64,000 nt of DNA. Source: Candidatus Enterousia sp. (GTDB lineage Bacteria > Pseudomonadota > Alphaproteobacteria > Rs-D84). A model generated the notes under the pieces. That model saw only the letters and a list, made by a program, of their open reading frames with translations, was not told the DNA's origin and ran no database searches. Positions 15,737 through 36,026 of the stretch are shown here, one piece after another. A program made the position numbers and the translations under genes. How positions within the stretch are numbered: position 1 is the first letter of the stretch; the number at the start of each line of letters is the position of its first letter. Location of the stretch: the NCBI GenBank assembly GCA_045645645.1, contig JAZRJE010000020.1, forward strand, positions 2,249 through 66,248, read 5' to 3'.

Positions 15737-15760
15737 ATATGTTAAGTATGTTTTGTTATA

Positions 15761-16439: not shown

Positions 16440-16453
16440 TTAGGTTTTATACA

Positions 16454-17753: not shown

Positions 17754-18123
17754 ATAATTTTTCAATATAGTTTATCTCAATCTCTGTTTTAAATATTCCT
17801 CTGTCAACTTCTCCGTACATTTTTACTGTGTCTGATGGTGTTATTGTTTGGCCCCGCCATTCGTCATCGTCTATTTCAACAGCAATCGATCCTGTTGCAT
17901 CTTCGAATAAGTATGTTTCACTGCCCATGCGTTGAACAATGTTACCTTTGACAATTACTGGTACATCATCACGCATTTCCATAATTTGTTTTACTGTCGA
18001 TATTGTTTCTGCGCCTGGCACAAATCCGCCCGCACTGGTATTTGTTGCGGCTGGTTGAAAATCTGCATTTGCGTATCCAATCATAGCGACGGATAAAATT
18101 GCAAAAATTGAAATTTTTTTCAT
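17752..18123 (-). CDS. YgiW/BOF-family periplasmic OB-fold protein
   Basis: Signal peptide MKKISIFAILSVAMIGYANA. GGF..G...TV..I..M.DD.PV.VKGNIV...G...Y.F.D.TGSI.VEIDDDEW.G pattern, typical of the family. Confidence 0.75.
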   Translation of the reverse strand: MKKISIFAILSVAMIGYANADFQPAATNTSAGGFVPGAETISTVKQIMEMRDDVPVIVKGNIVQRMGSETYLFEDATGSIAVEIDDDEWRGQTITPSDTVKMYGEVDRGIFKTEIEINYIEKL

Positions 18124-18192
18124 TGTTCGTTCCTTTGTTTTTGTTGCGTGTATAAAAAAAGTATATCATATTAAAAAGGTGTTTTGTCTAGG

Positions 18193-18219
18193 AAAAAAAC
18201 GGGGTGTTTCCCCGTTTTT
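18193..18219 (-). terminator. Rho-independent terminator after the MotB-like gene
   Basis: CGGGG-TGTTT-CCCCG with an A-run on the plus strand, which reads as a T-run on the minus strand. Confidence 0.65.
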
Positions 18220-19330
18220 ATCTGTTGGTTAGCTGCATTTCTATTCGTCTGTTTTGTTGCAGGCTTGCTGCATCATTACCCAAACTGACAGGAGATGTAT
18301 CGCCAAATCCTGTTGGAAGTAATCTGCGACGAGAAACACCATTTTTTGCCAGTTCTTCTACGACAGCTGTGGCACGTAATAGTGATAACTGGGTATTGTT
18401 TCTGTAACCGCGTGTTCCAGCAATAACAGGTTTGTTATCTGTATGACCATCAACGCGTATAATCCAATTTATGTCAGTTGGAATTTGGTTTTCCATGTCT
18501 TTGATTACATTGGCAATTAAGCGTAACTGGTTTTTTCCTTCGGCGGTTAGATTGTATGCACCACTGGAAAATAAGATGTCACTGGATACAATAAATCTGT
18601 CGCCATCTGGTTGCAGTGTTGTTCTGTTCCCCATTGTATTTTTTATAGCTTTATAGAATGCGGATTGATATTGTGACATATCGTTTAGTTCCGCAACTTT
18701 GTCAGCTAGTGCTTTATTTAGTCGTGTTGACATCTCAACATATCGTATTTCTTGATTTCGTGATTTTTCTTCTGCTGCATCCAGGGCGGCTTGTAAATTT
18801 TCTAATTGTTGGGATAGTTCCAAATATTGAATATCCATTTGTTCTTCCAGTGCCGCACGTTCTAGTTCCAGTTCGTTTGCGCGTTCACTGTCCAGTGTTG
18901 CTTGGGCAAGCTGTTCTGTTAGTGAATCTACCATGTTTTGCATCTCTATACCCTGGGCTTGCAAACTGTTTACTTTGTTTTCGTAAGCCGTAATAAGATC
19001 TTCGATACTTAAATCCATTTCATTTAGTTCGTTGGTCAAAGCAATATTATTCTTTTCCAAGTTTTCTAATTCGTTCCTTGCTAGGATTAGCAAACGCTTG
19101 GCTTCTTCTTCATCCATGCTCATTTGCTGGATTTGCTCAGCCTGGTTGGCATTTGTTGCTTTTAATTCTGCAACAACACGTGCACCAGTTGATTTATTGA
19201 ATACACTGGTTGTTGTCCATAAAAACACGAATACAATTAGTAAAAATATTAATATAATTACCAGATTCGAAAACAGGTCAACGAATCCAGGCCATGGGTT
19301 TATTTGGTTACGATATCGCATGTTTAACAT
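18218..19330 (-). CDS. MotB/OmpA-family peptidoglycan-binding protein with a long internal coiled coil
   Basis: N-terminal NPWPGFVDLFSNLVIILIFLLIV (MotB-type TM). About 200 aa of heptad-rich sequence. C-terminal OmpA-like RVDGHTDNKPV...NTQLSLLRATAVVEEL...NRRIEMQL. Confidence 0.75.
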   Translation of the reverse strand: MLNMRYRNQINPWPGFVDLFSNLVIILIFLLIVFVFLWTTTSVFNKSTGARVVAELKATNANQAEQIQQMSMDEEEAKRLLILARNELENLEKNNIALTNELNEMDLSIEDLITAYENKVNSLQAQGIEMQNMVDSLTEQLAQATLDSERANELELERAALEEQMDIQYLELSQQLENLQAALDAAEEKSRNQEIRYVEMSTRLNKALADKVAELNDMSQYQSAFYKAIKNTMGNRTTLQPDGDRFIVSSDILFSSGAYNLTAEGKNQLRLIANVIKDMENQIPTDINWIIRVDGHTDNKPVIAGTRGYRNNTQLSLLRATAVVEELAKNGVSRRRLLPTGFGDTSPVSLGNDAASLQQNRRIEMQLTNR

Positions 19331-19359
19331 TTTTTATTCTCTCTCTTTGTGATATCAAG

Positions 19360-20154
19360 TTACAAATCTGAAACTGATTTTGTTAATTTTTTTACTGTTC
19401 GTGTTAATTCACGAGTTGCAAAATTAATCTGTGGTAATACTTCTACGATTTCATCGGGTGATGGCGTAGATGTACGTGTGTGCGTAGACAGATATTCTTC
19501 AAGCTCATTAAAGATAGCATTTTGTGCTAATTGCATTTGAAGCCCTAAAAAACCTACAATTAAACTGCCTGCTAATCCCATCAGAGAACTGGTAAAAGCA
19601 GTTGCCATGCCAGATAATGGACGAACTAATCCAGATTGCATTGATGACATAACAGATTCGTCTGCAAAATTTAAACTGCCAATTAATTCTGCAAAACCAC
19701 CAATTGTTAATATTAACCCCCAAAATGTCCCCAGTAATCCTAAAAATATAAGCGTATTAGTAATGTATCGTATGGATTCACGTGAATCGTCCATGCGTAA
19801 CAGAATCATTTCTAGCATTCCATTCAATGTGTTAGCAGAAAGTTGCTTTGGGCGTGTGCTAAGCATCATTGCAACAGGTCTTAATAGGTGTGGTGGTAAC
19901 TGATTGGTGCGTTTGCCCTTGGTAAATTCAGTCAGCCATTTGTATTCTGGTAATAGTCGGAACATTTCAATAAAACATGCACCAATGCCAAAAAGGGTTG
20001 TTCCGATAATGATACCGTTTAACCATATGTTTGAAATAGCTATTTGCATAAAAAGTGGATAAAAAATCACCAGCAATGCCGTAATAAATGCAATGAAAAA
20101 TGCCATGCGATTAAGTGCGCTATGAAATTGCTTTGTCATATATTTATTTCTCAT
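19360..20154 (-). CDS. MotA/TolQ/ExbB-family proton-channel protein
   Basis: Multiple TM segments. LGLLGTFWGL...SGMATAFTSSLMGLAGSLIVG is characteristic of the family. It lies 29 nt upstream of the MotB-like gene. Confidence 0.7.
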   Translation of the reverse strand: MRNKYMTKQFHSALNRMAFFIAFITALLVIFYPLFMQIAISNIWLNGIIIGTTLFGIGACFIEMFRLLPEYKWLTEFTKGKRTNQLPPHLLRPVAMMLSTRPKQLSANTLNGMLEMILLRMDDSRESIRYITNTLIFLGLLGTFWGLILTIGGFAELIGSLNFADESVMSSMQSGLVRPLSGMATAFTSSLMGLAGSLIVGFLGLQMQLAQNAIFNELEEYLSTHTRTSTPSPDEIVEVLPQINFATRELTRTVKKLTKSVSDL

Positions 20155-22571: not shown

Positions 22572-24419
22572 ATGAAATCACTGTACCGCATTTTGTTTTA
22601 TGTGATGTTTTTGTTGCCCAGTGTCGCTGGTGCTGCACCTGTTGCGACAACAGCAGGTAATAATTTAACTGCATATAATCCTAATTCAATCGGATCTGTT
22701 AATAATAATCAGTGGAATATGCTGATGAACAGTCGTACGGGTACTGAAAATGCGCCTGTGGCAGATTTTGGTAATTGTAATGCTTTGGTGTTGCGTTGTG
22801 CGCAACCAAAGTGTGCGACGGGTGGATGTACATCGATGGATATAACGGTGCCAATTGTGACGGGCTGTGTTATGGATAATGCGACCTGTAAGCAGCATGG
22901 TGATGCGTTAATTCAAACGATTGCTGCACAAGTTGTTGCAAATTCAAATGCAAAGGCAATGCAGGCTGCACAACAACAGCAAGCCGCTGCCGCCGCTCAG
23001 ACCAGCCAGCAAATGGTGCAAATGCAGCAGCAGATGAATATGCAAATGCAGCAAATGCAGCAACAGATGCAGGCGCAAAATGATGCAACAGTTGCGCAAT
23101 TACAGGCTGCGCTGGAAGAGCAAAAACAGCTGGCTGCCCAACAGCAACAAACGGTAACAGTTGCAACAGCAACGACGACTAAAGATGATACGTCTGCAAA
23201 TGGTTTGACCGCAGCACAACAAGAAGCAGCGGAACGTGGAATTGATGCAGATTTGTTGGTGCGTGAACAGGTTTCTGGAGAAATTTTATCGAAGCTGGAA
23301 AGTGCTGAAACTGCCTTAAAGGCATTAAAGGCATCGATGAAAGATACATTTGATTATGCTGGATGCGATTCCAAAGGAAACAATTGTGCTGGGCCAAAGC
23401 GTGTCAAAGTATTTAAGCAAAAGGCAATGAATTTCTTTGATCCATATAATGATGTGCTGGACGAATTGTATGATGCATTGATTACAGCTCAGGCGGTTGG
23501 TGTGGATATTACCGATATATACATGATGCTGAATGGGTCGTGTAATGTGTGGGGTGAATATTTGTGTTCGGATACTATACGTGCCTCGTATAACAATCAA
23601 AATTGCCCTAATGGCAAATCTGTACCATCACCGACAACACGTGGTGGTGCATCATGCAGTCTGAGGGCAATTATCGGTGCCGAAGACAGTCCTGCGTGTA
23701 CATTGAACCGTACGTTGAAAGATATGGAAGAGGTACAACGCAATTGGTTGGATGCAGAAGAGGGCAATCGTGATTCTACAGTGCGTATTGGGTGTGCGTC
23801 ATCTGCATTGGAAAGTTCGGCATTGTTCCGTAATCGCAAAAAGCAGGCTGATATTGATATAGAAGTATTAGAACGTATTATTGAACAAGATGCACCAGCG
23901 GTGTTTGGGCGTGTTTATGGTGGTGATGAAATAACAGTGGCGGATGCGTGGAAGTATTGTGCAGTTGATGGGGATGGTATGGAAGAACTGCAAAAAGCAG
24001 TCGCTATGAAAAAATTGCCAAATAAGGTGTGTGTCGGTAAACTGAAAGGTGTTCAGGTATATGCGCCACCTGTTGCAGAGAGTACAACGATAAAGTCTGA
24101 TTCGGTTGCAATTTATCGGGTTGATTGTACCAATAGTGTCTGGAAAAATACAGCACAGTGTAAATGTGAGTCGTCTGGTGGAACATGGTGGGGAAATGCT
24201 AGTGGATGCAGATGCGGTATGTTATTTGAATTAAAGGCAGGAGAGTGTGTTTTAAAAGGGGCGACTGAGTATGAAAAAACAAGTCGAGAGTTTTATTCTT
24301 CTATGTGTTCATGGCGTGGTGGAAATCCACGGTTGGATGGAAGTTGTGACTGTGCGAATGCGGGTGATAAATTTGTGGAATGTATGAAATTAAGTACAAA
24401 TGTAGTGGATGTAGAATAA
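22572..24419 (+). CDS. Cys-rich secreted protein with a Q/M-rich low-complexity coiled coil, family member
   Basis: TAAGAGAGAA precedes the ATG at 22572. Signal peptide MKSLYRILFYVMFLLPSVAGA. CNALVLRCAQPKCATGGC, then the QQQMNMQMQQMQQQMQAQ region; the C-terminal half is dense in Cys. Confidence 0.8.
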   Translation: MKSLYRILFYVMFLLPSVAGAAPVATTAGNNLTAYNPNSIGSVNNNQWNMLMNSRTGTENAPVADFGNCNALVLRCAQPKCATGGCTSMDITVPIVTGCVMDNATCKQHGDALIQTIAAQVVANSNAKAMQAAQQQQAAAAAQTSQQMVQMQQQMNMQMQQMQQQMQAQNDATVAQLQAALEEQKQLAAQQQQTVTVATATTTKDDTSANGLTAAQQEAAERGIDADLLVREQVSGEILSKLESAETALKALKASMKDTFDYAGCDSKGNNCAGPKRVKVFKQKAMNFFDPYNDVLDELYDALITAQAVGVDITDIYMMLNGSCNVWGEYLCSDTIRASYNNQNCPNGKSVPSPTTRGGASCSLRAIIGAEDSPACTLNRTLKDMEEVQRNWLDAEEGNRDSTVRIGCASSALESSALFRNRKKQADIDIEVLERIIEQDAPAVFGRVYGGDEITVADAWKYCAVDGDGMEELQKAVAMKKLPNKVCVGKLKGVQVYAPPVAESTTIKSDSVAIYRVDCTNSVWKNTAQCKCESSGGTWWGNASGCRCGMLFELKAGECVLKGATEYEKTSREFYSSMCSWRGGNPRLDGSCDCANAGDKFVECMKLSTNVVDVE

Positions 24420-24423
24420 ACAG

Positions 24424-25110
24424 ATGAAAACTAAATTAAAATTTTTTGTATTCTTGTTTATGCTTATGGCACCTTTGGTGTCGGGAGCGGCGTCTAATGG
24501 TTGTGATAATCCAGATAATGAATATATTGCGCCAGAATTGGCATTGTGTTCGACGCATGTGTATAACATTGGTTTACCGACAAACCCAACAGATGACACA
24601 AATCGTGGGTATATGAAGGATGTGGTTGCGTTAAAGACGACGATTATGACCCAGCAATTGAATAAACAGTATGAATATCTGGAATCGATGATACGTCGCT
24701 TTAAGACTCAATTGGAAAAAGCTATTTTGACAACAAAGTTGCAGACGTCTGGGGCGGGTGGTGCTTCGTCTGGTGGTTCGTCTGGTTTCAAATCGGATGA
24801 TAATTTTATTGTTTTGTCTGGAACGCAAAATTGCTTAAAAATGGTCACAATAGATGCGTCTTTGTCGTGTTTGCAGTCGAATGTACGTATTGCAATGGAT
24901 GCGGTGACAGCGGGAAATGTTCGTGATGCAAAAAAACAATTGGAAAAGGATGCAGAGGCAGCAAAAACAATGGAAATTACAGAAGATAGCTGTAATAGTA
25001 TGAATGCCTCAAAGAAAGATACGGTTTCAGGGTGTGCGACAGCTTTAAATTATAAATTGATGCAAAAGATAGATGATCGTTCGCGTGAAATGCAACGTCA
25101 ACGTCAATAA
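24424..25110 (+). CDS. Secreted coiled-coil protein with six Cys
   Basis: Signal peptide MKTKLKFFVFLFMLMAPLVSGA; starts 5 nt after the upstream stop. Confidence 0.7.
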   Translation: MKTKLKFFVFLFMLMAPLVSGAASNGCDNPDNEYIAPELALCSTHVYNIGLPTNPTDDTNRGYMKDVVALKTTIMTQQLNKQYEYLESMIRRFKTQLEKAILTTKLQTSGAGGASSGGSSGFKSDDNFIVLSGTQNCLKMVTIDASLSCLQSNVRIAMDAVTAGNVRDAKKQLEKDAEAAKTMEITEDSCNSMNASKKDTVSGCATALNYKLMQKIDDRSREMQRQRQ

Positions 25111-25125
25111 GTTTGTTGTTTGTAT

Positions 25126-25150
25126 AAAATCCCTGGTTTGGGATTTTATT
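25126..25150. terminator. Bidirectional Rho-independent terminator
   Basis: AAAATCCC-TGGTTT-GGGATTTT lies between convergent genes. Confidence 0.65.
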
Positions 25151-25151
25151 A

Positions 25152-25859
25152 TTAGTTTGTTTCAGTGCGTATTAATTGTGATTTTTTATACATTGTTTCA
25201 AATTGTTTTTCTGCATCGGCCAGTGTTTTGGGTGCGTCCCCTTGGGGGGCGGTGAAATCTGCACCGTTATGTATTATTAAACGTATGCCATCAGAATGTT
25301 CACAATCAATGTGGTATTTTGATTTTTCATATTTCTTGCCGTGGCAGCGACCGTTTTTTATACCGATATATTCTTCGTTCGCCAGTTCTTGGCATGTTGG
25401 TTCGGTGGAACGCAAAAGAATGCTGCCTGTGGCTAATTTTTCTGTTTCGTCAGAATAGAAAACGTTTTCTAAGATGCCTGGACAGAATACTTTGACTTGT
25501 TGGCCGTCTTTGGTGGCAAAAAGTCCGTTAGAAGATGTTTTGCGTGCGCCAAAACATTCGCCGTTTAATATATTTGTGTCATAATCTGCATTGATGTTCT
25601 TGCGTGCAGATATGTCTTTCTTTGTCATTGCTGTATTTTCAGTTGATACAGGATCTTGGGCGGCGCCACATATTATTTTTTGTCCCCAACATTCTGATGT
25701 TTTGTCCCAATATTCTGCTTCGAATCCGATACCCATTGTGGTATAGCAATTTGATGGATCTAAGCGACATATGGTGTCTTGTTCCCACCATTTGATGGCA
25801 CAATGTGCATATGTTGTATTAATAATGATTGCCAAGGATAATAAAGATATTTTTTTCAT
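25152..25859 (-). CDS. Secreted Cys-containing protein
   Basis: Signal peptide MKKISLLSLAIIINTTYA; ten Cys; lies 9 nt downstream of the 25869..28439 gene. Confidence 0.7.
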   Translation of the reverse strand: MKKISLLSLAIIINTTYAHCAIKWWEQDTICRLDPSNCYTTMGIGFEAEYWDKTSECWGQKIICGAAQDPVSTENTAMTKKDISARKNINADYDTNILNGECFGARKTSSNGLFATKDGQQVKVFCPGILENVFYSDETEKLATGSILLRSTEPTCQELANEEYIGIKNGRCHGKKYEKSKYHIDCEHSDGIRLIIHNGADFTAPQGDAPKTLADAEKQFETMYKKSQLIRTETN

Positions 25860-25868
25860 TTTTGGTTT

Positions 25869-28439
25869 CTATTGTTGTTGTGTTGTTGTGGTCGAAATAA
25901 GCGCATTTGTACAATAGCCCCATTCTGTATTTGCGCCTGTTTCATTGTAGAATACTTTATTTAATTCGTCGCCAGTAGCGTCGTGTTTTCCGTCTGCGTT
26001 ATTTGTGCATGTTTCATTCCCACTGGCGTTTGTTGTACAATTTATCTTACCTGATTTATCAACCCAGGCAGAATCAATCCACAGACCACCCAGACGTTCG
26101 CATTCTTCGGCCAGGTTTTTACCCATGTCTATTCTTATTTTATCCATTACAATGTTAACGTCTTGTAAAACATCAATTGAAATAGTGTAATTAGGATTAT
26201 TTGCATCGGATGGGCGTACACATGTTTGTAGCGCATAACGTACCAGACGTTGATACATACTGCCTGCATAATTGCCACAAGTGTTAAGCAGTTCTTCAAT
26301 GTTTGTTGATGGGTCTATTTCTGTTATCCCAGAAGTTGGTTCCGATGTGCCGCCAGGGCATCTGGTAGAGTTTGGATCGTATTCAGGGTATTTTGAACAT
26401 ATTTGACATTGATAGCCGCATTCATCAGAATCTCCAATAGGCAAGTCGTTTTCATCAGCAAGATAGTAACCAACGTGACAACTTGTATAACAACGTCCGT
26501 CTACGGGGCATGTATAAGTTGATGGCATGTTGGGGGTTATTTCTGTGATTTCAAATTCTTCATTAGTTGGTAGGTTTGATCCAGATGGAATGTATGCGTT
26601 GTTTGAAGAATTGTATCGATCCCATATTTGTTGGTTGCATTCTGCGTTTTGGGCGTATTTTTGTTCCCCTGGGGCGTATACGCGACATGCGTATGGATAC
26701 GAGTGTAATGTGTCGTTGCTGGGGGTCGTGCATAAATCTTGGGCATATTCTTCTAGTGCAGTTTTACAGTTTTGTGCAATCTTCGCGTCTGTAATTTCAT
26801 GCATTGCGACCACCAGTTCTTTTAATCCAATAGGGCCACCACCATATAGGTTTGAGCACGCATCTAATTTTTCACGACATAATTCTTCAGAAAGCTCTAA
26901 ACGTTGACCTAATAGCAGCTGTTCTTTAACATTGCTAAAGTCTTTTAATGATTGGTTTTGTTCGTCATAACATGTGGTTACTACATCCAGACACTCATTT
27001 TTTACCTGACGAATGCGTTCTTGCTGGTATTGGTATATTTCCGCTATTGATTGACGCAAGAATTCATCCCAGACTTGGTCGGATAAATCACGACATTTAT
27101 CCAGACTGTTCGCTGCAAATGAACGCATGCGATTCAATTCCGCCAGAATTAAGCGGTTTGTCTGATTTGATAGTACGTCACCAGATAATGATATTTGACC
27201 GTCTAGTTGGTAAAATTGAGGTGAATATATCGGTTGGCCTGTTTCGCGGTTTAAATAACGACCAGATACATCCAGACAATGAACAAAATTTGTGCCACAT
27301 GCATTTTTAGCTGTCAGATCGCGACGTACGTTGGCAACACATTCGTTGATATATACAGAATTATGTGAATTGTAATTGTCAAGACGTGCGGTGTGCATTG
27401 TTCGTTCCGTTTCGCGAACGCTACCCTTAGCTGCGTTTATTTTAGTGTCCAAATTGTTTGCCAATGCTGTACAATCGTTTTCAATATACATCCCATATGC
27501 AGATACAACCATATTTAGTGTAGCTTTTGATGAGCATGTTTCAGAAATCATAGCAACGCATTGGGAATGAACGGCGTTGTATAAAGCTTCACCACTAAGA
27601 TTTGCAATATTTGCGCCGTCGGCTAAATCGGTGGTGGACCAAATTTGTTTTATGTCGCCGCCAGCATCCAATGTACCAGCAGTGGATAGGGCTTGTGATT
27701 TTGTTTTGTTTAATACGTTTGTTATGTTTGATAGTTGTTGTGCTGATGCTGATTTGTCTTTGGATTGGGATGCTAATGCTTCGCCACTGCTGGCTGAAAT
27801 CATGGCCGTTACTTCTGCACCAGTTTTATCAATTACACTGATGTTAAAGTCATGAAAGTCTTGTAGTTGACTGGCCGTTTGTGATAATAAACTTTCTCGT
27901 TGTTTAATTTCGTTCAATCTGGAAGAACATGCACAACGACGATAGGATTCATTTTGAGCTGCGCAGAATTGATCCATACAGGTAAAGTATGCATCACGAC
28001 AGATATTGTATTCTGAACCAAATGTATTTGATTCCATTCCTGGTGTTACAACAGCAGCACGACTGACGCGTGATATGCTAGTTTGTTTTTTGTTTGTTGT
28101 GCGTGTACTGGCAATTTGCTTTCCAGTACGTGGCGCATTTTTTGCAGTTTGTTGTACCGATGGTCGCACAATAGTGCCACGAACAATGGTGTTGTTTGAG
28201 CGTTGTGTTTGAGATGTTATATTGCGAGATGTAACCTGTTGTGGACTGGTTTCACGTGGTGTGGTTGTGCGACTGACTGTCTTAGAAGAAGTGCGTGGGT
28301 TATTGTTTGTATTTCCACGGGTGACAATCTGGGGAGCTACGTTAGTGTTTCTGTTAACTGTATTTGCATCACGAACAGCAGCGTTGACAATGCCAACGCA
28401 TGAAAAACATGTCGCAATAAATAATGCCGTCTTTTTCAT
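25869..28439 (-). CDS. Large Cys-rich secreted protein, family member, with a basic T/R/N-rich disordered N-terminal region
   Basis: AAGGA SD. Signal peptide MKKTALFIATCFSCVGIVNA. CRDAYFTCMDQFCAAQNESYRRCACSS, CGTNFVHC, CLDVVTTC, CREKLDAC. Confidence 0.85.
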   Translation of the reverse strand: MKKTALFIATCFSCVGIVNAAVRDANTVNRNTNVAPQIVTRGNTNNNPRTSSKTVSRTTTPRETSPQQVTSRNITSQTQRSNNTIVRGTIVRPSVQQTAKNAPRTGKQIASTRTTNKKQTSISRVSRAAVVTPGMESNTFGSEYNICRDAYFTCMDQFCAAQNESYRRCACSSRLNEIKQRESLLSQTASQLQDFHDFNISVIDKTGAEVTAMISASSGEALASQSKDKSASAQQLSNITNVLNKTKSQALSTAGTLDAGGDIKQIWSTTDLADGANIANLSGEALYNAVHSQCVAMISETCSSKATLNMVVSAYGMYIENDCTALANNLDTKINAAKGSVRETERTMHTARLDNYNSHNSVYINECVANVRRDLTAKNACGTNFVHCLDVSGRYLNRETGQPIYSPQFYQLDGQISLSGDVLSNQTNRLILAELNRMRSFAANSLDKCRDLSDQVWDEFLRQSIAEIYQYQQERIRQVKNECLDVVTTCYDEQNQSLKDFSNVKEQLLLGQRLELSEELCREKLDACSNLYGGGPIGLKELVVAMHEITDAKIAQNCKTALEEYAQDLCTTPSNDTLHSYPYACRVYAPGEQKYAQNAECNQQIWDRYNSSNNAYIPSGSNLPTNEEFEITEITPNMPSTYTCPVDGRCYTSCHVGYYLADENDLPIGDSDECGYQCQICSKYPEYDPNSTRCPGGTSEPTSGITEIDPSTNIEELLNTCGNYAGSMYQRLVRYALQTCVRPSDANNPNYTISIDVLQDVNIVMDKIRIDMGKNLAEECERLGGLWIDSAWVDKSGKINCTTNASGNETCTNNADGKHDATGDELNKVFYNETGANTEWGYCTNALISTTTTQQQ

Positions 28440-28489
28440 CCTTAAATAATTATCTTTAATAATAACAAATAATCAAAAAAAATACTAAT

Positions 28490-28518
28490 AAAAAAATCCC
28501 ATCTGAGTGGGATTTTTT
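28490..28518 (-). terminator. Rho-independent terminator after infA
   Basis: ATCCCA-TCTGAG-TGGGAT flanked by an A-run and a T-run. Confidence 0.7.
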
Positions 28519-28759
28519 AATTTTGTTCTGTTGGTGACTTTGTTCGTTCGACAAATGTTATTCGTCCCTTGTCCAGGTCGTATGGGGTCATTTCAACGCG
28601 TACGCGTTCGCCAACGTTTACCCAGATGCGTGCCTTGCGCATTTTGCCGCATACGGTTGCTAAAATTTCATGTCCATTTTCAAGTTTTACGCGAAACATT
28701 GTATTTGGTAATTTGTCTTCAACTGTGCCGCTAAAAACAATAACGTCGTCTTTTGCCAT
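28517..28759 (-). CDS. infA: Translation initiation factor IF-1
   Basis: [69 protein letters not shown]. Confidence 0.95.
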
Positions 28760-28889
28760 TTGTAATCCTTGTTAATTTTCTGCGAATAATGGTATTATGT
28801 TGACGAAAAAAAAGCAAGATTTTTTTATTTTCTTGTGTGTTAGTAAAATATTTGATAAAATTATCTTAAATTTTGTATGGGGGCTTATT

Positions 28890-31064
28890 GTGAAATTAGG
28901 AATTCTTGCGACTTTATTGTGTGTTTTGCCAGGCTTGTCTATGGCTGATTCCCGTGGAGAAGAGGTGCGTGTCGGTGTTAAGCGTGCGTCTAATGCTGCT
29001 GCGCGTATGCCGACTTTAACAGCGTATACAGGTGGTGGTGTGCCGTCCACGGTTAATGTTTCAAAAAAAGTTACGGTGAAGGATAGTGTCGCAGATACTG
29101 AGAAGGTGCCTGATGTTCCAGAAGAAGTGCCTGGTGATGATGGTGTAGGTGACGAATCGGGTAATAGTACGCCTGTTGTTAATGGAAATTGTCGAGATGC
29201 GTATCGTGAATGTATGGACTTGTTTTGCTTGCTGGATGAGTCAGAGGGAAATCGTTGTGCCTGTTCTTCTAATATAGAGAAGTCTAAAGGGTTGATTCAA
29301 GAAATACAAAATATTCAGTTAGAGGCAGATAAGTTGTACACAGAGGGTGTCGAACGTGAACAGTTGGGCGCCAAGGCAAGGTTAGTGTTTGGTGAAAGTG
29401 AAACGGCTAAGAAAAAATCTGTTTTTTCTGGGTTTGATTTTGCAGCATGGGCTAGTGGTGGTGTTGATGATGAAGAAGGTGAATTGGGTGAGGATCTAGA
29501 TATAGGTGATGCGCTTTATGAAATGGCTGCAGAACAATGTGCGGCTGAGCTGGAGGCCTGTGGTTCCAAGGCAGAGATGGAAGAACTTTTGTATTCGCGT
29601 CAAATAACGGCAGATTGTAAGGCTTTTAATTTGTACTTAAATGAGCAGAAGCTAAATGCACAGGCAAATAAGCGTACGGCTGAAGCTGCTGTGCGTAAAG
29701 CGCGTTTGGAAATGTTAGATACAACCAACAAATATAATCAAGGAGAATGTTTGCTGGCGTATCGTGCCTGTATCGCCGATAAAGGTGGTTGCGGATCGAA
29801 TTTTGAAAATTGCTTAGATGCTGATTTGTTGGGACGTCGTGCCAGTGCTTGTGAAAATGTTTTGGATCAATGTATGGCTGTACGTGATTATGTTTTGAAA
29901 GATTGGCAGGCAGAATCGGAGGCGATTTTAGTTGATGCTGCGAAGTATGCAGATAAGTATCGTCGTCAAACTTGTTTGGCGCAAATTCAGGTTTGTTTGG
30001 AAGATGGTTGTTCGACATCTACAAATTCAGCTTGCTTGTCAGATGTAAATGTTGCAGCAGGCGTTTGCCCGATTATTGATGAGTGCGATTCGATTGTGCC
30101 AGGGTTGAAGTCGGTTGTTAACGATAAGTTGTTCTATCTGCGTACGCAGTTTTGTCAGAATGATGTAGATGCATGTCTGCGTGATAAATGCGGTGAAAAC
30201 TTTACAGCGCCAGAGTGTGTTGGTAAGAAGACGTCTGATATTGTTGCGTTGTGTCCACAAAATATGTTCCCTTCATGTAAAACGGAACCACAGTTTGATA
30301 TAATTGTTCAGGCTGTATTGTTGCAGATGGATTATCAGTTGATGCAGGGATGTGTAAATTATTTTGGTGAACAGTTGGGTAAAGTTTGTGGAACAGACAT
30401 GGCTTGTTTGCCATCAGATTCTACGGTTGAAAGCTTGCAAAAGTTGCCAGAAAGTGCAGATGGAATTGCACAGTTGCGTGCGCAGGTTCAGGCGAATTCT
30501 GTGGCGGCGGTTGACGAATTTTTTGCTCAGTTCCAGCAAGATGTGACAGTGGCTGCATGTATGGATAGTGAAAAGCCAAAGGGGCAAAAGAGTTTGGGTG
30601 ATACTGTGTTTACATCTGCAAAAATGATTGCGCGTATTGGTGCTGAAAATCGTGCGTTACGTGCATTGGAAACTAAGATTGCAGAGTTGTCTCGTCAACA
30701 AGATTTAGAAGAAGCAGAAGCAAACTGTTATAATACGTATAAGGTGGAAACACCAGATAAATCAGCGAAGAATTATAGTTATGTTCGCAGTGTAGCGTTT
30801 GAACCATCGTTGCGTAATTGTCATGTATGTCGTATGCAACAGGTTTGTGAAACTGGCGGTGAATCTAAGGCAACTTCTGCATTAAAAGCGGCTGCTGGCG
30901 GTTTGTCTGCTGGCGCATCTGCTGGCACAATGATTAGTGCTGGTTGGGGAACTGCGATTGGTGGCATAGTTGGTGCTGTTGGTGGGGCTATTGGCGGTGC
31001 GATGTCTGGTGGAAAAAAAGATTTTTGCCAGGAAATCGAATCGTGTGAAGATATAAATATGTAA
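28890..31064 (+). CDS. Large Cys-rich secreted protein, family member, with a C-terminal glycine zipper and a CEDINM tail
   Basis: GTG at 28890 after GGGGG gives the signal peptide VKLGILATLLCVLPGLSMA; the ORF-track ATG at 28797 would add a non-signal extension running into the infA promoter region. CRDAYRECMDLFCLLDESEGNRCACSS, CLLAYRACIADKGGCGSNFENC, CQNDVDACLRDKCGENF. Confidence 0.85.
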   Translation: MKLGILATLLCVLPGLSMADSRGEEVRVGVKRASNAAARMPTLTAYTGGGVPSTVNVSKKVTVKDSVADTEKVPDVPEEVPGDDGVGDESGNSTPVVNGNCRDAYRECMDLFCLLDESEGNRCACSSNIEKSKGLIQEIQNIQLEADKLYTEGVEREQLGAKARLVFGESETAKKKSVFSGFDFAAWASGGVDDEEGELGEDLDIGDALYEMAAEQCAAELEACGSKAEMEELLYSRQITADCKAFNLYLNEQKLNAQANKRTAEAAVRKARLEMLDTTNKYNQGECLLAYRACIADKGGCGSNFENCLDADLLGRRASACENVLDQCMAVRDYVLKDWQAESEAILVDAAKYADKYRRQTCLAQIQVCLEDGCSTSTNSACLSDVNVAAGVCPIIDECDSIVPGLKSVVNDKLFYLRTQFCQNDVDACLRDKCGENFTAPECVGKKTSDIVALCPQNMFPSCKTEPQFDIIVQAVLLQMDYQLMQGCVNYFGEQLGKVCGTDMACLPSDSTVESLQKLPESADGIAQLRAQVQANSVAAVDEFFAQFQQDVTVAACMDSEKPKGQKSLGDTVFTSAKMIARIGAENRALRALETKIAELSRQQDLEEAEANCYNTYKVETPDKSAKNYSYVRSVAFEPSLRNCHVCRMQQVCETGGESKATSALKAAAGGLSAGASAGTMISAGWGTAIGGIVGAVGGAIGGAMSGGKKDFCQEIESCEDINM

Positions 31065-31089
31065 ATAGATACAGAATAAGAGAGAGAGT

Positions 31090-33585
31090 ATGAAAAAAGT
31101 TTATGCATTATGTGGTGTCTTAGCATCGGTGTTGTCATTGTATGCAATGGATGCATCGGCGGCGACTAAGAAAAAGACCTCAACAACAAAACAGGCTGCG
31201 ATTCAAAAGGGGACGTCTGTTCGTGCCAAGGTGACGGCATCTAACCTGTATGATCAGGAATGTTATGATGCGTTCTATGGTTGTATGGATCAGTTCTGTA
31301 TTTCTGATACGTCCAATGGTGGCAGTTGTACCTGCAGTGATTTGTCACTTGAATATGAAAAGAAGTTTGCCAAAGTCCAAGAAAAAATGATAGAAGCTGA
31401 ACGAATCGCAACAGAAGAAGTTGAACGTGTTCAGGCTGGTGCTGATGCCGATATTATCTTTTCTGGTAAACGTGTTTACGATGAAGATGGTAATATTGCA
31501 GATGCTGAACAGGACAAGCAGAACGATAAAGATAAAAAGCGCAAAGAATTACTGGCCATGTTTGAAAATGACTGGTATGACGATGAAGAAGAAGAACTGG
31601 TTGATATTTCTTCGTTAGAAGGGGATGAACTGTTTGCCGCAGCCGAAGAATTGTGTATGGAACAGGTTCCAGAATCCTGTTCTAAGGATTTAACACTGCT
31701 GCGCCAGATGTATTCACGTCAAATTGTGTCTGATTGTAAAGCGTTTGAAAATACAATCGCAGCCAAGGAAATAGAAGCAGATCGTGCCATGACCGCTGCC
31801 GAAGGTGCAGTTCGTGCAGCCTTAAAAGAAAGTTTTGACAGCGCAAATAAATATGATTTGGGTACGTGTATGGTTGAATTTAAAAAATGTATGCGCACCG
31901 AAGATGCCTGTGGTGAAAATTGGGAAAATTGTGTTTCAACAATTGCATCTGAAAATATGCAGAATGAAAAAACAAAAAGTGTTGCTGGGACAACTATTGA
32001 AACAATTAATACATATGATATCACTGCTTCAACAATGGAAATTTTGGATTCAAAACGTATAATTTGTGAACGTGTTTTGGATAACTGTGTCGCGGTTCGT
32101 GATAATGTTTGGCCTGCTTTCCTGCGTGAGGCTGCACCGACGATTCGTGTTGCGGAAACTGCAGCAGAATCCAGAATGCGTCAATCGTGCTTGACTAATA
32201 TTTCAAAATGTATTCAAAAGGCCTGTAAAGATGACATTGTTGGCAAAGGTGTAGATACAATGGATGCATGTTTGTCACGTCCAGATATGGCACGCAGTTT
32301 TTGTAAGGTTGAAATAGATCCTTGTGAACGTATGGAACCGTTAATTTGGGGGTATGTCGTTGATAAATTGGCGGCAATGCGTGTTGATGCATGTACACAA
32401 GAAGTCAAAGATTGTTTTACAGCTGAAACACGTTGTGGTGAAAACTTTGAAAATTGTATAGGTATGGATTATGATTTCATCCATGATATTTGTCCGATTG
32501 ATAGTCTGGTTGTGTGCAAGGCGAATAATCCAAAATTCTCGATGGATGATTTGGATTCAATGTTGATGGGATTGTATTTGAACATAGACAACAGTGCATT
32601 GGATAACTGTCAGGAAATTGTTGATAATAAAATGGCAGAGATTTGTGGTTCTACGACAGACTGTAATGTATTTGCAACAGATGAAGTTTTGGGAACTGGC
32701 AGTTTGTTATCGCAGAAAGATGGGAATGTATATCGTGTAACTGGAATGATATCGTTTGGTGATATCAAGATGGGCAGTGCCAGTGTGACCAAAGATGAAT
32801 CTGAAAAACTGCAACCAGGTCAAATTGGTATAAAAGAATATATGAATAATGTACGTTCAAAGAATGAGAATGTAAAGAATAGTACAGAAATAATTGCGAC
32901 GATTGAGACAGAACTGGAACATATTGCTGGGACGATAAATCGTACAATTGAATTGATAGAATTGGATCCTAAGGTACAATTTTGTATCAGTGGTCGTGAT
33001 TTATCGCAGATTACAGGAAAAAAGAATGCGAAGACAGGCGCACGTTTTCCGAATCTGTTAAATCAGAAGAAGGTACAAATTGCGGCATCAGCGTTGCGCA
33101 AGGCACAGGATAACTATAATGCGAAGTTCCAAAAGCTTGTAGCAGAAGCCACCAAAGACGCCGATGCGGATTTGGCGCAGTATATGTGTCAGCGCTTAGC
33201 GGCGACAGATGGTGAATTGATTGGGGGGCTGAATTCAGATGTTGATACGCCATTGGCACCACCATATGCGATTTCTTATGATGTTGGTGCAGGCTTGAAC
33301 AGTAGTGATTTGTTAACTGGTGGTCATTCGTCTGTTGAAGGATTAAATTCTTCTGTAGACTTTTCCAAGAAATCAACAAAACACAAGTTTGAGGGGGCTG
33401 GTTATACACGTGAAGCATGGTCAACATATGATCGTGAATCCAGAATCTGTCATTTTTGTACCAGCACGATTACACAAAAGTGTGAAACTAAAAAAAGTAG
33501 CGGGTTCCTGGGAATAGGTGCAAGTCAAAAGGCAAGTTGTACGCCGTCTGAACCTGTGGAAAAGTGTGAAGATATCAAAATGTAA
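31090..33585 (+). CDS. Large Cys-rich secreted protein, family member, with a CEDIKM tail
   Basis: TAAGAGAGAGAG precedes the ATG. Signal peptide MKKVYALCGVLASVLSLYAMDASA. CYDAFYGCMDQFCISDTSNGGSCTCSD, CMVEFKKCMRTEDACGENWENC, CTQEVKDCFTAETRCGENFENC. Colinear with the 28890 gene. Confidence 0.88.
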   Translation: MKKVYALCGVLASVLSLYAMDASAATKKKTSTTKQAAIQKGTSVRAKVTASNLYDQECYDAFYGCMDQFCISDTSNGGSCTCSDLSLEYEKKFAKVQEKMIEAERIATEEVERVQAGADADIIFSGKRVYDEDGNIADAEQDKQNDKDKKRKELLAMFENDWYDDEEEELVDISSLEGDELFAAAEELCMEQVPESCSKDLTLLRQMYSRQIVSDCKAFENTIAAKEIEADRAMTAAEGAVRAALKESFDSANKYDLGTCMVEFKKCMRTEDACGENWENCVSTIASENMQNEKTKSVAGTTIETINTYDITASTMEILDSKRIICERVLDNCVAVRDNVWPAFLREAAPTIRVAETAAESRMRQSCLTNISKCIQKACKDDIVGKGVDTMDACLSRPDMARSFCKVEIDPCERMEPLIWGYVVDKLAAMRVDACTQEVKDCFTAETRCGENFENCIGMDYDFIHDICPIDSLVVCKANNPKFSMDDLDSMLMGLYLNIDNSALDNCQEIVDNKMAEICGSTTDCNVFATDEVLGTGSLLSQKDGNVYRVTGMISFGDIKMGSASVTKDESEKLQPGQIGIKEYMNNVRSKNENVKNSTEIIATIETELEHIAGTINRTIELIELDPKVQFCISGRDLSQITGKKNAKTGARFPNLLNQKKVQIAASALRKAQDNYNAKFQKLVAEATKDADADLAQYMCQRLAATDGELIGGLNSDVDTPLAPPYAISYDVGAGLNSSDLLTGGHSSVEGLNSSVDFSKKSTKHKFEGAGYTREAWSTYDRESRICHFCTSTITQKCETKKSSGFLGIGASQKASCTPSEPVEKCEDIKM

Positions 33586-33610
33586 AAATCCCCCGCACGG
33601 GGGATTTTTT
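33584..33610 (+). terminator. Rho-independent terminator
   Basis: AAAAATCCCCC-GCAC-GGGGGATTTTTT. Confidence 0.85.
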
Positions 33611-33781: not shown

Positions 33782-34474
33782 ATGGGATTGTGTAATTTAA
33801 GGCCATTTAAACGTTTTTTATTGTTTGTTCTTATGGCGTTGATAGATATGTCTTATCATACCAAGTTGTTTGCGTACAGTTTGACTGCTGCGGAACGTCC
33901 AAATTGTGGTACTGCTGCGGGGCAGGCATGTGCAGGTTTTTCGACGGGGATGTATTTGTCTGTGGTTGGTGCATCCAATTTAATTATATTAAGTGATAAT
34001 GCTGATTTGTATAAATTGTACAGTAGTACCAGTGCAGGTGTTTCTGGATATCGCAGTATATGCATTTGTTTCACGAAAACAGAATTAGAAAAATTACAAA
34101 GTTGTGACAGAAATTATGGCAGTTGTGGTACAGGGGCCACAGGTATGAGGATGCATGTTTTGCGTTCAGGGCGCAATTCGACAGGTCATCAACATATATC
34201 GTGCGGTGTCTATATGGGTGGGTGTACATGTAATTCGGGATATTATGCGATTATGAATGGGTGTCTGCCGTGTTCAAAAGGGTATTATTGCCCGAAAAAA
34301 ACACCTGTACAATCTACTTATGCTGCGGGGGGCAGTACCCAGTGTCCAACCCCAGGGGTAACAGCGGGTGCTGGGGCGAACAGTATATCCAGTTGTTATA
34401 TCCCGACAGGGTATGTTGGTAAGTCCAATGGCCATACGTATAAATATGTTGCGAATTGTTTTTATGGTAGTTAG
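33782..34474 (+). CDS. Small secreted Cys-rich protein, tandem paralog 1 (GCC2/GCC3-like repeat)
   Basis: AAGGAAG/TAAGGG SD region. N-terminus FKRFLLFVLMALIDMSYHTKLFA. CTCNSGYYAIMNGCLPCSKGYYC...CPTPGVTAGAGANSISSCYIP. Confidence 0.75.
   Translation: MGLCNLRPFKRFLLFVLMALIDMSYHTKLFAYSLTAAERPNCGTAAGQACAGFSTGMYLSVVGASNLIILSDNADLYKLYSSTSAGVSGYRSICICFTKTELEKLQSCDRNYGSCGTGATGMRMHVLRSGRNSTGHQHISCGVYMGGCTCNSGYYAIMNGCLPCSKGYYCPKKTPVQSTYAAGGSTQCPTPGVTAGAGANSISSCYIPTGYVGKSNGHTYKYVANCFYGS
33845..33876 (+). repeat. 32-nt segment identical to 35316..35347 (signal-peptide region of paralogs 1 and 3)
   Basis: GATATGTCTTATCATACCAAGTTGTTTGCGTA is read at both places. Confidence 0.9.
34030..34075 (+). repeat. 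46-nt segment identical to 35501..35546 (paralogs 1 and 3)
   Basis: CAGTGCAGGTGTTTCTGGATATCGCAGTATATGCATTTGTTTCACG is read at both places; it encodes SAGVSGYRSICICFT. Confidence 0.9.
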
Positions 34475-34577: not shown

Positions 34578-35237
34578 ATGCGGGCCGTTGATTTAAGTTT
34601 TTTTAAAAGGTTTTTTTTGTTTGTGTTGGTGTCGTTGATTAATGTGGTGTATAACACGAATTTGTCTGCGTATACGACCCAAGCTGCAGTAAATGGCAAC
34701 TGTACAGCATCAACGACAGGGTGGTCCTGTAAACGTATTTCTTCATGGGGCGAATCATTTATCCAAGGCCCAGTTAGTTTATATAATACAGCAGTTGCTA
34801 ACCAAGTGTGTTTGTGTTTAAGTACCGCAGAAATGAATTCTGCCACTAATTGTAGAACAGCATCCAGTGGTAGTCCAAAAAGATGTAACGCCATGTATAC
34901 TGGAACGATGGGTACGATGGGTTATATTTATTATGATGTTGTTGCGAAATCATGTAACGGCACACTTGATTGTTATTGTGACGCAGGTTATTATGCTGCT
35001 AATTCAAAGACATGTACCAAATGCAGTGGAAGCTATTATTGTGCAGGTAAAGGTAACATGGTATCACAAGTGGGTGGTATTGGACTGGCAACAAGTAAGG
35101 CTTGCCCAAGTCCAGGGACAACCGCTGGTGGTGCAACGACTATTGGCAGCTGTTATATTCCTGCAAACTCACTTATTACAGAAAGTGGCACTGGGCATAC
35201 ATATGATTATGCGTATGATTGTTATTATGCAAGTTAA
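34578..35237 (+). CDS. Small secreted Cys-rich protein, tandem paralog 2 (GCC2/GCC3-like repeat)
   Basis: N-terminus FFKRFFLFVLVSLINVVYNTNLSA. CYCDAGYYAANSKTCTKCSGSYYC...CPSPGTTAGGATTIGSCYIP. Confidence 0.75.
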   Translation: MRAVDLSFFKRFFLFVLVSLINVVYNTNLSAYTTQAAVNGNCTASTTGWSCKRISSWGESFIQGPVSLYNTAVANQVCLCLSTAEMNSATNCRTASSGSPKRCNAMYTGTMGTMGYIYYDVVAKSCNGTLDCYCDAGYYAANSKTCTKCSGSYYCAGKGNMVSQVGGIGLATSKACPSPGTTAGGATTIGSCYIPANSLITESGTGHTYDYAYDCYYAS

Positions 35238-35252
35238 ATTGTGGGGAAAGAT

Positions 35253-36026
35253 ATGCGACAGATTAAGTTGACATTATTTAAGCGTTTTCTGTTGTTTTTT
35301 TTGATGCTTTTTGTTGATATGTCTTATCATACCAAGTTGTTTGCGTATGTTTTCACTGGTCATAATATGTCAAATTGTGGTATTACAGCTGGGCAAGCAT
35401 GTTCTGGTTATTCTTCTGGGGTTTATGTAACTCTCCTTAGTCAGCTAAATATAATGGTGTTGAGTGAAAACAAAACTCTTTATGGTTTAATATCGAGTGG
35501 CAGTGCAGGTGTTTCTGGATATCGCAGTATATGCATTTGTTTCACGCAAGCAGAATTAAGTAAATTACAAAGTTGTGCAAGCAGTAGTTATGGCAGTTGT
35601 GGTATGGGGGCTACTGGTACGGCTATGCATGTTTTGTATGAAGGGCAGGATGCTACAGGTAATGAACATATATCATGTGGCAGATATAAGGGGGGGTGTA
35701 TATGTACTTCGGGATATTATGCGGTTGTGAATGGATGTGTTATGTGTTCTAGTGGATATTATTGTTCTTCTAATACACATGTTTATTATGATCAGGCAGG
35801 GGGGGGAAGTAAGGCTTGTTCACTAGGCTATTATCAGCCAAATACAGGTCAGATCTCTTGTTACCGTTGCCCAAGTGCATCATCTGTATCTGGTACGGCA
35901 TATGGTGTAACAGCAAATACTGGGGCAACGTCGGTTACGGATTGTTATATTGCTTCTACACAGAATTTACAGGATGCATTTGGTTTTTTCAATTTTAGTA
36001 AAAATTGTAGTGCGCAGGCTTCGTAA
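35253..36026 (+). CDS. Small secreted Cys-rich protein, tandem paralog 3 (two GCC2/GCC3-like repeats)
   Basis: GGGGAAAG SD before the ATG at 35253 (the ORF-track start 35241 is GTG). LFKRFLLFFLMLFVDMSYHTKLFA. CICTSGYYAVVNGCVMCSSGYYC and CSLGYYQPNTGQISCYRCPSASSVSGTAYGVTANTGATSVTDCY. Confidence 0.75.
   Translation: MRQIKLTLFKRFLLFFLMLFVDMSYHTKLFAYVFTGHNMSNCGITAGQACSGYSSGVYVTLLSQLNIMVLSENKTLYGLISSGSAGVSGYRSICICFTQAELSKLQSCASSSYGSCGMGATGTAMHVLYEGQDATGNEHISCGRYKGGCICTSGYYAVVNGCVMCSSGYYCSSNTHVYYDQAGGGSKACSLGYYQPNTGQISCYRCPSASSVSGTAYGVTANTGATSVTDCYIASTQNLQDAFGFFNFSKNCSAQAS

Follow-up and report, generated by a model that had tools for sequence, protein, structure and literature searches.

A lineage-restricted family of exported, cysteine-rich proteins with a predicted disulfide-ladder architecture in Candidatus Enterousia

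Disulfide-rich bacterial envelope proteins are known as a general kind. Here we analyze a family of such candidate proteins encoded between positions 22572 and 33585 of a 64,000-nt stretch of contig JAZRJE010000020.1 (assembly GCA_045645645.1, contig positions 2,249 to 66,248; hereafter referred to as the window). The window derives from the chromosome of Candidatus Enterousia (order Rs-D84), an anaerobic, uncultured alphaproteobacterium that lives in the gut. Genomes of this lineage measure less than 1 Mb, lack a respiratory chain, flagella and biosynthetic capacity for amino acids, nucleotides or lipids, and encode many unexplained membrane proteins, with a partner-dependent lifestyle being suspected; the peptidoglycan genes RodA, MreB and MrdA are kept (PMC12306168). 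Three genes of the segment, g25869, g28890 and g31090 (Table 1), encode large exported proteins whose cysteines are predicted to form a ladder of disulfides between long helices, and we refer to them and their homologs as the ladder family.

In architecture the ladder family recalls proteins of the mitochondrial intermembrane space, a compartment topologically equivalent to the periplasm. In the twin CX9C (CHCH) and twin CX3C (small Tim) proteins found there, nested cystines staple antiparallel helices: two Cys placed on the same face of one helix bond, outer to outer and inner to inner, with two Cys of the other. The ladder family differs from CHCH proteins in its spacing (CX6C/CX7C, one heptad, instead of CX9C) and in scale, with four hairpins plus loop disulfides predicted in an 800-aa protein, as opposed to one hairpin in about 10 kDa; its export would be Sec-dependent, whereas CHCH and small Tim proteins depend on Mia40. 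No CHCH Pfam match was found in the window proteins or in 50 family members, and the likeness is offered as an analogy only, with no homology claimed.

The ladder family also recalls the chlamydial OmcB/OmcA/MOMP complex, another case of exported Cys-rich envelope proteins in a host-dependent bacterium with a reduced genome, and the two may have intermolecular disulfides in common through the bond predicted between g25869 and its neighbor g25152. No OmcB/OmcA homology is detectable in the family by Pfam or PDB match, the modeled fold is alpha-helical whereas the chlamydial complex is beta-rich, and Enterousia, unlike the chlamydial case, keeps its peptidoglycan genes. Cysteine parity (see below) further implies that nearly all ladder-family cysteines are intramolecular, with at most one intermolecular bond (g25869-g25152), again unlike the chlamydial complex. 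The Helicobacter Hcp proteins are exported and all-alpha, with helix pairs bridged by one conserved disulfide per repeat. They consist, however, of 36-aa SLR repeats (Pfam Sel1), whereas the ladder family has another spacing and far longer helices, and no Sel1 or TPR match was obtained in any member scanned by Pfam.

At the C-terminal end, proteins of the g28890 subfamily carry a segment (GWGTAIGGIVGAVGGAIGGAM) reminiscent of the glycine-zipper membrane hairpin of outer-membrane proteins such as the Rickettsia 17-kDa antigen, SlyB/Pcp and YMGG. In a Pfam scan of 50 diverse members, sporadic and weak glycine-zipper matches were the only hits (Gly-zipper_Omp in 2/50, E=1.7e-4), and g28890 itself gives matches below threshold to NCBIfam YiaD_Gzip (E=0.16) and to Pfam Bacteriocin_IIc and C19orf12 (E>0.3). 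Known glycine-zipper proteins are small N-terminally lipidated lipoproteins, whereas the zipper-like segment of g28890 is appended C-terminally to a 700-aa protein; family members carry no lipobox, and the Cys of their signal peptides is poorly conserved (24-51%).

Long helical bundles stabilized by conserved cystines also occur in PfEMP1 DBL domains and in the trypanosome VSG, and class I viral fusion proteins carry a CX6C(C) loop at a helix-turn-helix chain reversal. These proteins belong to a different kingdom and to different folds, and none was matched by the ladder model in Foldseek searches of PDB and BFVD. The autotransporter barrel (PF03797) is missing from the ladder family and is found in the window only at an unrelated gene (12848-15682).

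The ladder family and its setting beside infA

Seven genes make up the segment, in the order g22572(+), g24424(+), g25152(-), g25869(-), infA(-), g28890(+) and g31090(+), and three terminator-like hairpins split them into four units: g22572-g24424, g25869-g25152, infA and g28890-g31090 (Table 1). A sequence-only reading of this DNA had proposed that all of these genes except infA encode Cys-rich proteins with signal peptides, four of them large members of one family. The six products do have signal-peptide-like N-termini in a heuristic test (basic n-region, h-region of at least 10 hydrophobic residues, small residues at -3/-1), which infA, rplI and a glycosyltransferase fail and which 117 of 145 family representatives pass. 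Their Cys content is indeed high, at 2.6-5.1% against 0-2.3% in most housekeeping open reading frames (ORFs) of the window, and the peptides quoted in that reading are all present in the translations of the genes named. The count of large members has to be lowered to three within the segment, with g22572 excluded.

The proposed colinear paralogy of g28890 and g31090 is borne out by BLASTP (E=3e-55, 29% identity over 473 aa). A more distant paralog, g25869, aligns to the other two with E-values of 4e-19 and 6e-18 (hhalign probability 99.4%) and is recovered by the family hidden Markov model (HMM) at E=1.5e-123. When a profile of the three paralog cores was compared with sequence clusters at the 50% identity level, 832 of them matched with E<=1e-3 and 353 of these with E<=1e-30. 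Word-indexed searches yielded more than 1200 sequences at 90% clustering, of which all named ones are a "hypothetical protein" of alphaproteobacterial metagenome-assembled genomes. A few homologs are labeled Muribaculaceae or Bacteroides, labels that resemble binning errors, and an assignment of the distant representatives (26-35% identity) to other taxa was rejected, these being extra paralogs in the Enterousia lineage. In another Enterousia genome a fourth paralog of 988 aa and 38 Cys adjoins the block just past rpsK, and a relative from wolf gut carries three full-length tandem copies together with a shorter relative of the C-terminal domain. As judged by sequence similarity, the family is restricted to this lineage, and g25869, g28890 and g31090 are paralogs that diverged long ago. 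Enterousia genomes hold at least one further paralog elsewhere, and small relatives carry only the module.

Two other Rs-D84 loci (L081, positions 1-20000; L082, positions 1-23000) hold Cys-ladder paralogs and other Cys-rich genes right after rpsM-rpsK. In L081 these genes at the end of the ribosomal cluster precede rpoA and rplQ; no rpoA was called in L082. One gene at this position encodes 665 aa with 67 Cys and an Ephrin_rec_like domain.

No named domain had been recognized in the sequence-only reading, and database searches agree: the family has no significant Pfam, NCBIfam or PDB-sequence match, and no Pfam, NCBIfam or PHROG model reached threshold for g25869, g28890, g31090, g25152, g24424 or g22572. 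A weak PHROG tape-measure match of g28890 falls on a low-complexity G-rich segment. Profile searches of PDB sequences returned no match at E<=1 with the close-ortholog alignment and a best E-value of 0.69 with the diverse alignment. An AlphaFold2 (AF2) model of g31090 based on an alignment of 83 diverse sequences reached a mean predicted local distance difference test (pLDDT) of 82.8 and a predicted TM-score (pTM) of 0.53, with most of the C-terminal half above 90, as compared to 64.7 and 0.36 in a first model based on close orthologs only. The better model consists mostly of long helices (84-115, 195-252, 334-381 and 485-519), followed by an alpha/beta domain (530-830) that ends in beta-hairpins, and gave no fold match in Foldseek (best E-value 0.43 in PDB and 0.05 in BFVD). 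Literature searches returned general Enterousia/Rs-D84 papers and no description of the family or of a twin-CX6C motif. The ladder family is undescribed, with no names, models or structures, and no solved structure related to its fold could be detected.

In g31090 the signal peptide is followed by a basic linker, then by the helical region of the Cys-ladder (~56-525) and by an alpha/beta C-terminal domain (~530-831), and the protein ends in C-E-D-I-K-M. The GTG start of g28890 was chosen because ortholog N-termini align there and a GGGGG Shine-Dalgarno-like run lies upstream; the alternative ATG at 28797 sits within a promoter-like -10 box. Toward its C-terminus g28890 carries a glycine-zipper-like hydrophobic segment (nt 30879-31013), followed by the terminal sequence CQEIESCEDINM. 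In g25869 both the C267/C326 pair and the C379-C456 block are missing, and the C-terminal region (nt 25872-26642; ~250 aa) is Cys-rich and hypervariable, with blocks only 12-29% identical among orthologs. The linker that follows the signal peptide is basic, of low complexity and rich in Ala, Arg, Thr and Ser in most members (residues 25-55 in g31090, 21-140 in g25869), with a recurrent R-G a few residues past the cleavage site and "ARAA" repeats. Such a linker might serve as a tether that spans the periplasm or contacts peptidoglycan.

The gene order of the block, g25152(-), g25869(-), infA(-), g28890(+), g31090(+), is kept in 80 of 80 GTDB loci at species level, with median identities across these loci of 43% for g25152, 51% for g25869, 91% for infA, 68% for g28890 and 64% for g31090. 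This conserved order and these identities identify the block as core, vertically inherited genes and not as a contingency family, which bears on the proposal that the proteins are surface adhesins or a variable antigen family, binding host or partner ligands or evading immunity, with disulfides serving only for stability in the gut. For g28890 and g31090 the proposal, already raised in the sequence-only reading, fits poorly: they are strict 1:1 orthologs in fixed synteny, 64-68% identical, with 40-residue blocks around their Cys that range from 41 to 97% identity among orthologs. Repeats, phase-variation tracts and recombination cassettes are likewise missing, and none of the outer-membrane export or anchor domains of known adhesin classes is present. 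The C-terminal 250 aa of g25869, which are hypervariable, contain indels and gain Cys pairwise, would accommodate it, as would the GCC2/GCC3-like Cys-rich repeats at the end of some subfamily members, the Ephrin_rec_like domains in neighboring small proteins, the sheer size of the family at 832 clusters, and the reduced genome of a probably partner-dependent organism. The g25869 C-terminus may be a variable adhesin; as an explanation of the family at large we consider this unlikely.

Cysteine conservation, paired loss and the proposed ladder

The 4-Cys module noted in the sequence-only reading is real: the motif CGx[DN][FWY]xxC occurs six times in the window, as compared to 0.04 times in shuffles, and the strict form C-x6-C-x4,6-C-G-x-[DN]-[FWY]-x2-C occurs five times. 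The dominant spacing is CX6C, which accounts for 10 of 35 spacings in g31090 (1.2 expected; reached in 0 of 5000 shuffles) and is seen eight times in g28890. Profile comparison aligns the two modules of g31090, at C260, C267, C274 and C281 and at C435, C442, C449 and C456, with one another (hhalign probability 96.4%, E=1e-9), which points to an internal duplication. Upstream of the modules, the paralogs have a 5-Cys signature in common, of which the columns C58, C65, M66, D67, F69, C70, C80 and C82 are invariant. The module also extends beyond the segment, to two small exported proteins at the edge of the window (1142-2080 and 2-1141, both on the minus strand). The first of these has a signature-like N-terminus, is matched by the family HMM (E=0.0018; domain independent E-value 6e-5) and contains six CX6C spacings against 0.9 expected.

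The sequence-only reading had suggested disulfide-stapled helical bundles, and the AF2 helices, Cys invariance, even parity, paired loss and coevolution all support this suggestion. Among 78 g31090 and 75 g28890 orthologs, conservation reaches 99-100% at each of the 36 mature Cys, and exactly 36 Cys are present in 77 of 79 g31090 and 75 of 76 g28890 orthologs. Across 145 diverse family representatives, the count is even in 122. An even-Cys bias in exported proteins, according to work by Dutton and colleagues in 2008, is reportedly a genomic signature of organisms that form structural disulfides.

Cysteines are also lost in twos. Outside the g25869 subfamily, substitutions of core Cys remove two residues in 11 sequences, three in one and one in one. 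Recurrent lost pairs are C58+C197, C367+C412 (five sequences), C379+C394 (two), C442+C468 (two) and C519+C525 (two); C790 and C826 are mostly missing together, and C267+C326 are missing from the entire g25869 subfamily. When placed on the four hairpin motif pairs, [58,65|189,197], [260,267|326,333], [367,374|405,412] and [435,442|468,476], the lost pairs are outer-outer or inner-inner in all four hairpins, which indicates a nested antiparallel topology, with none fitting a parallel one. The remaining partners then pair by exclusion, as 65-189, 260-333, 374-405 and 435-476.

Coevolution follows the same geometry. In a mean-field direct-coupling analysis (DCA) of 531 sequences (effective number, Neff, 192), 16 of the top 100 couplings fall on the four antiparallel diagonals, with 2.6 expected (hypergeometric p=5e-9), and the top-ranked coupling, 257-343, is among them. 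Paired loss and DCA together provide indirect support for nested disulfides joining antiparallel helices. The deletion in g25869 spans exactly C379 to C456, so that the outer halves of two hairpins join as a new CX6C|CX6C pair (483,490|521,528), a change that a modular ladder would tolerate. A strong series of parallel couplings (j-i ~130) was also observed between two long helices of g31090, residues 84-125 and 195-252 (window 31339-31464 and 31672-31845). These couplings could arise from three helices packed within one chain or from a coiled-coil contact in a homo-oligomer.

In the architecture that we propose on these grounds, with considerable confidence, about 470 residues would fold as long alpha-helices once the signal peptide has been cleaved, beyond the basic low-complexity linker, and four twin CX6C/CX7C antiparallel hairpins would pin these helices through a nested disulfide ladder. 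The module halves CGxNFxxC (274-281, 449-456) would close small loops at the turns, making each duplicated unit a three-rung ladder (C1-C6, C2-C5, C3-C4), and all 36 Cys of g31090 and g28890 would be used in disulfides (~18 bonds). We infer the disulfide chemistry itself from these patterns of conservation and covariation.

The same Cys pairs on adjacent helices could in principle form tetrahedral sites, and an anaerobic, reducing habitat, together with the fact that no oxidase was identified in the window and the syntenic loci, would suit a protein in which facing CX6C pairs coordinate Zn or Fe-S, such as a periplasmic metal store or redox protein. This explanation sits badly with the pattern of loss, since Cys are lost two and not four at once while the sister pair of the same hairpin stays, which argues against tetrahedral metal sites. 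The local CX6C and CX5C loops (274-281, 449-456, 519-525), an even parity that holds despite Cys numbers from 18 to 39, the export of the proteins and the fact that no conserved His, Asp or other co-ligand was noted speak against it as well, and we give metal binding very little credence.

The predicted g25869-g25152 pair and the proposed function of the family

Immediately downstream of g25869, in the same transcription unit, lies g25152, which is present in 69 of the 80 loci and occupies this position in 8 of 8 loci mapped. Its mature product has nine Cys in 69 of 69 sequences (68 orthologs and the window copy), and among 71 g25869 orthologs the count is odd in 61 (29, 31, 33, 35, 37 or 39). 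Odd counts that change in steps of two indicate that the g25869 C-terminus gains or loses Cys pairwise around one extra cysteine, and the presence of two odd-Cys proteins side by side in conserved synteny suggests a single intermolecular disulfide between them. We accordingly predict that the one unpaired cysteine of g25869 would bond to the single unpaired cysteine of the co-transcribed g25152. Neither g25152 nor g24424 shows homology to the ladder family (family HMM for both, hhalign for g25152), and the idea that g25152 is a detached C-terminal domain of the family was rejected (hhalign probability <50%, over 9 columns only).

From the same comparisons we infer the heterodimer, as well as the localization and function outlined here. 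The ladder proteins would be constitutive structural parts of the envelope, forming a rigid scaffold that resists proteases and denaturants, and this scaffold would fold in the periplasm and attach to a membrane. A cross-linked envelope layer of the chlamydial type, raised in the sequence-only reading by analogy, may or may not be what they form. Core synteny beside infA or ribosomal operons and the moderate to high conservation of the proteins fit constitutive structural components. The last residues of most proteins of the g31090 and g28890 types read [E/D]-[IVL]-x-[MF]; in the g28890 subfamily a ~45-residue glycine-zipper-like segment precedes a conserved Cys-containing tail, and in other paralogs a hydrophobic segment lies close to the C-terminus. 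The alpha/beta C-terminal domain would end in a membrane-association element (glycine zipper or hydrophobic segment) plus a short [E/D]-hydrophobic-x-[M/F] motif. Since the tail Cys count toward parity, the tail would lie on the oxidizing side, which fits a re-entrant zipper better than a membrane-spanning anchor. The variable Cys-rich C-terminus of g25869, with g25152, would be the best candidate for an exposed part that contacts a partner or ligand. Taken as a whole, a lineage-restricted set of Sec-exported disulfide-ladder envelope proteins, including the g25869-g25152 bond, is the explanation that we somewhat favor; the envelope-scaffold function by itself is a tentative assignment, with chances near or slightly below even.

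Several points weigh against this explanation. Ortholog kinship causes the parity statistics to be overstated, and the parity of g25152 amounts to one conserved state; the odd cysteines could alternatively be used in homodimers or remain as a free thiol. No outer-membrane translocation signal or dedicated secretion system lies adjacent to the genes, so that surface exposure is no more than possible. As for the source of oxidation, DsbA, DsbB and VKOR are absent from the window ORFs scanned by Pfam, and phmmer with E. coli DsbA and DsbB sequences found nothing at E<0.1 among the ORFs of the window and 81 loci, which amount to <10% of a genome. A source of oxidant is hard to see in a lineage reported to lack a respiratory chain and in a reducing gut lumen. 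A screen for CXXC motifs in the window and syntenic loci returned noise only. The Cys-parity rule holds in three unrelated exported families, which points to oxidative folding as a general property of the envelope of this organism.

The proteins might instead be secreted effectors or toxins aimed at a host or prey cell, for instance pore-forming or membrane-remodeling helical proteins. Their large size, helical make-up and export would suit such a role, as would the glycine-zipper or hydrophobic segments at their C-terminal ends and the need of the organism to draw metabolites from other cells. We regard this as scarcely more credible than metal binding: the genes have no secretion-system or immunity-like neighbors, their core synteny by infA and ribosomal operons resembles that of housekeeping structural genes, and no toxin-family similarity was found in Pfam or PDB. 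A bolder extension of the envelope-protein explanation would be a lineage-specific structure of paralogous twin-CX6C ladder proteins, with one covalent heterodimer, that acts as a contact organ with a partner cell, its ~18 disulfides per subunit being formed by an unrecognized route of oxidative folding, in an anaerobe without a respiratory chain for DsbB-type reoxidation. We consider this extension doubtful, if possible.

Bacteria of the Candidatus Enterousia group occur widely in the guts of humans, rodents, birds and ruminants; their genomes are below 1 Mb, and how they feed themselves is not known. More than 1% of a genome of this size is occupied by the four or more large paralogs together with their small relatives, and all species examined conserve them, which makes it likely that the family is central to the build of the cell or to partner attachment. 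The family would add a new class of bacterial envelope protein, all-alpha and cystine-laddered, with no structural precedent, and it would raise the biochemical question of which oxidant a non-respiring anaerobe of a reducing habitat uses to form structural disulfides by the dozen in each protein. The g25869-g25152 pair would provide a concrete target for finding what Enterousia binds.

Separate exported families and other features of the window

Table 1. Window coordinates of the genes, cysteine motifs and terminator-like hairpins discussed in the text.
Feature	Position	Strand	Description
g31090 (paralog A)	31090-33585	+	831 aa, 36 mature Cys; 1241 homologs, all unnamed
g28890 (paralog B)	28890-31064	+	724 aa from GTG start, 36 mature Cys
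g25869 (paralog C)	25869-28439	-	856 aa; N-terminal signature and first hairpins shared; odd mature Cys count
g25152	25152-25859	-	235-aa exported protein, 10 nt downstream of g25869, same strand
infA (IF-1)	28517-28759	-	Between divergent paralogs; not a family member; eIF-1a Pfam match in ortholog
N-terminal 5-Cys signature, g31090	31261-31335	+	C-x6-C-M-D-x-F-C-x9-C-x-C
Signature equivalent, g28890	29190-29264	+	
Signature equivalent, g25869	27927-28001	-	
Module 1 of g31090	31867-31932	+	CMVEFKKCMRTEDACGENWENC
Module 2 of g31090	32392-32457	+	CTQEVKDCFTAETRCGENFENC
Module 1 of g28890	29748-29813	+	CLLAYRACIADKGGCGSNFENC
Second, variant module of g28890	30153-30218	+	CQNDVDACLRDKCGENFTAPEC
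Degenerate module of g25869	27276-27341	-	CVANVRRDLTAKNACGTNFVHC; Asp at second Cys, inferred partner Cys also gone
Small exported member	1142-2080	-	~288 aa from MKKHTL, 20 Cys; module CTAELTACIIKDTRCGSDYSNC then CGVDATGC
Window-edge ORF	2-1141	-	Modules CDIGLRQCMQSKCGKDFTNC and CGNRYNNCIINECGNKFSKC; cut by window edge
Terminator-like hairpin	25124-25149		Closes both g22572-g24424 and g25869-g25152
Terminator-like hairpin	28491-28518		infA's own
Bidirectional terminator-like hairpin	33584-33609		Closes the g28890-g31090 unit
g22572	22572-24419	+	615-aa exported protein, 26 Cys, Q-rich coiled segment; own conserved family
g24424	24424-25110	+	228-aa exported protein, 6 Cys; conserved downstream partner of g22572

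Membership of g22572 in the ladder family was rejected on a BLASTP E-value of 2.5, no family-HMM match at E<10 and an hhalign probability of 2.8%; the C-x6-C-x4-C spacing is all that the two have in common. The g22572 family has more than 1300 homologs, with Cys counts of 18-34 that are even in 111 of 113 sequences. Residues 125-200 of g22572 (window ~22944-23171) form a low-complexity helical segment rich in Gln, Ala and Met (QQMVQMQQQMNMQMQQMQQQMQ), and this Q-rich segment causes a spurious, sub-threshold TFIIA Pfam match that is also precomputed for many homologs. The g22572-g24424 pair sits elsewhere in other genomes and is conserved at another chromosomal site in locus L083.

Downstream of g31090, three tandem genes on the plus strand (33782-34474, 34578-35237 and 35241-36026) encode exported proteins of 219-261 aa with 6.5-7% Cys. 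They are mutual paralogs (54%, 32% and 28% identity), and the third matches Ephrin_rec_like (Pfam PF07699, E=5e-8), which is a Cys-rich module of eukaryote type. The trio was considered as a set of relatives of the g25869 C-terminus and rejected, no significant similarity being found in the window; it forms a separate family.

The loci nearest to the window among GTDB species genomes come from the gut of sheep, deer, yak, chicken, horse, mouse and human, and one of these genomes is circular, at 958,618 bp. Pfam matches of the window ORFs include the anaerobic ribonucleotide reductase NrdD and its activase, as well as the diderm envelope genes BamD, SurA-like, OmpA-like, autotransporter and MurJ, the last of which is, together with an RlpA-like gene, peptidoglycan-related. 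Adjoining MotB/OmpA-like (18218-19330) and MotA/TolQ/ExbB-like (19360-20154) genes lie on the minus strand, in a lineage reported to lack flagella, and this pair could be a stator-like energizer for another envelope function. On the plus strand, a 1215-aa exported protein (2170-5817) and two exported proteins of 300 aa (5912-6856 and 6835-7746), all low in Cys and with no Pfam match, enlarge the unexplained secretome of this small genome.

Between positions 1 and 50000, the GC skew in 2-kb bins is positive and unusually strong (+0.2 to +0.34) where genes lie on the plus strand and ~0 where they lie on the minus strand. At 52-54 kb the skew turns negative and the GC content rises to 0.44. Nearby, a serine recombinase gene (51066-52652, minus strand) overlaps a tRNA-Arg (51034-51110) with its 3' end, and the region 51034-57500 is probably an integrated mobile element.

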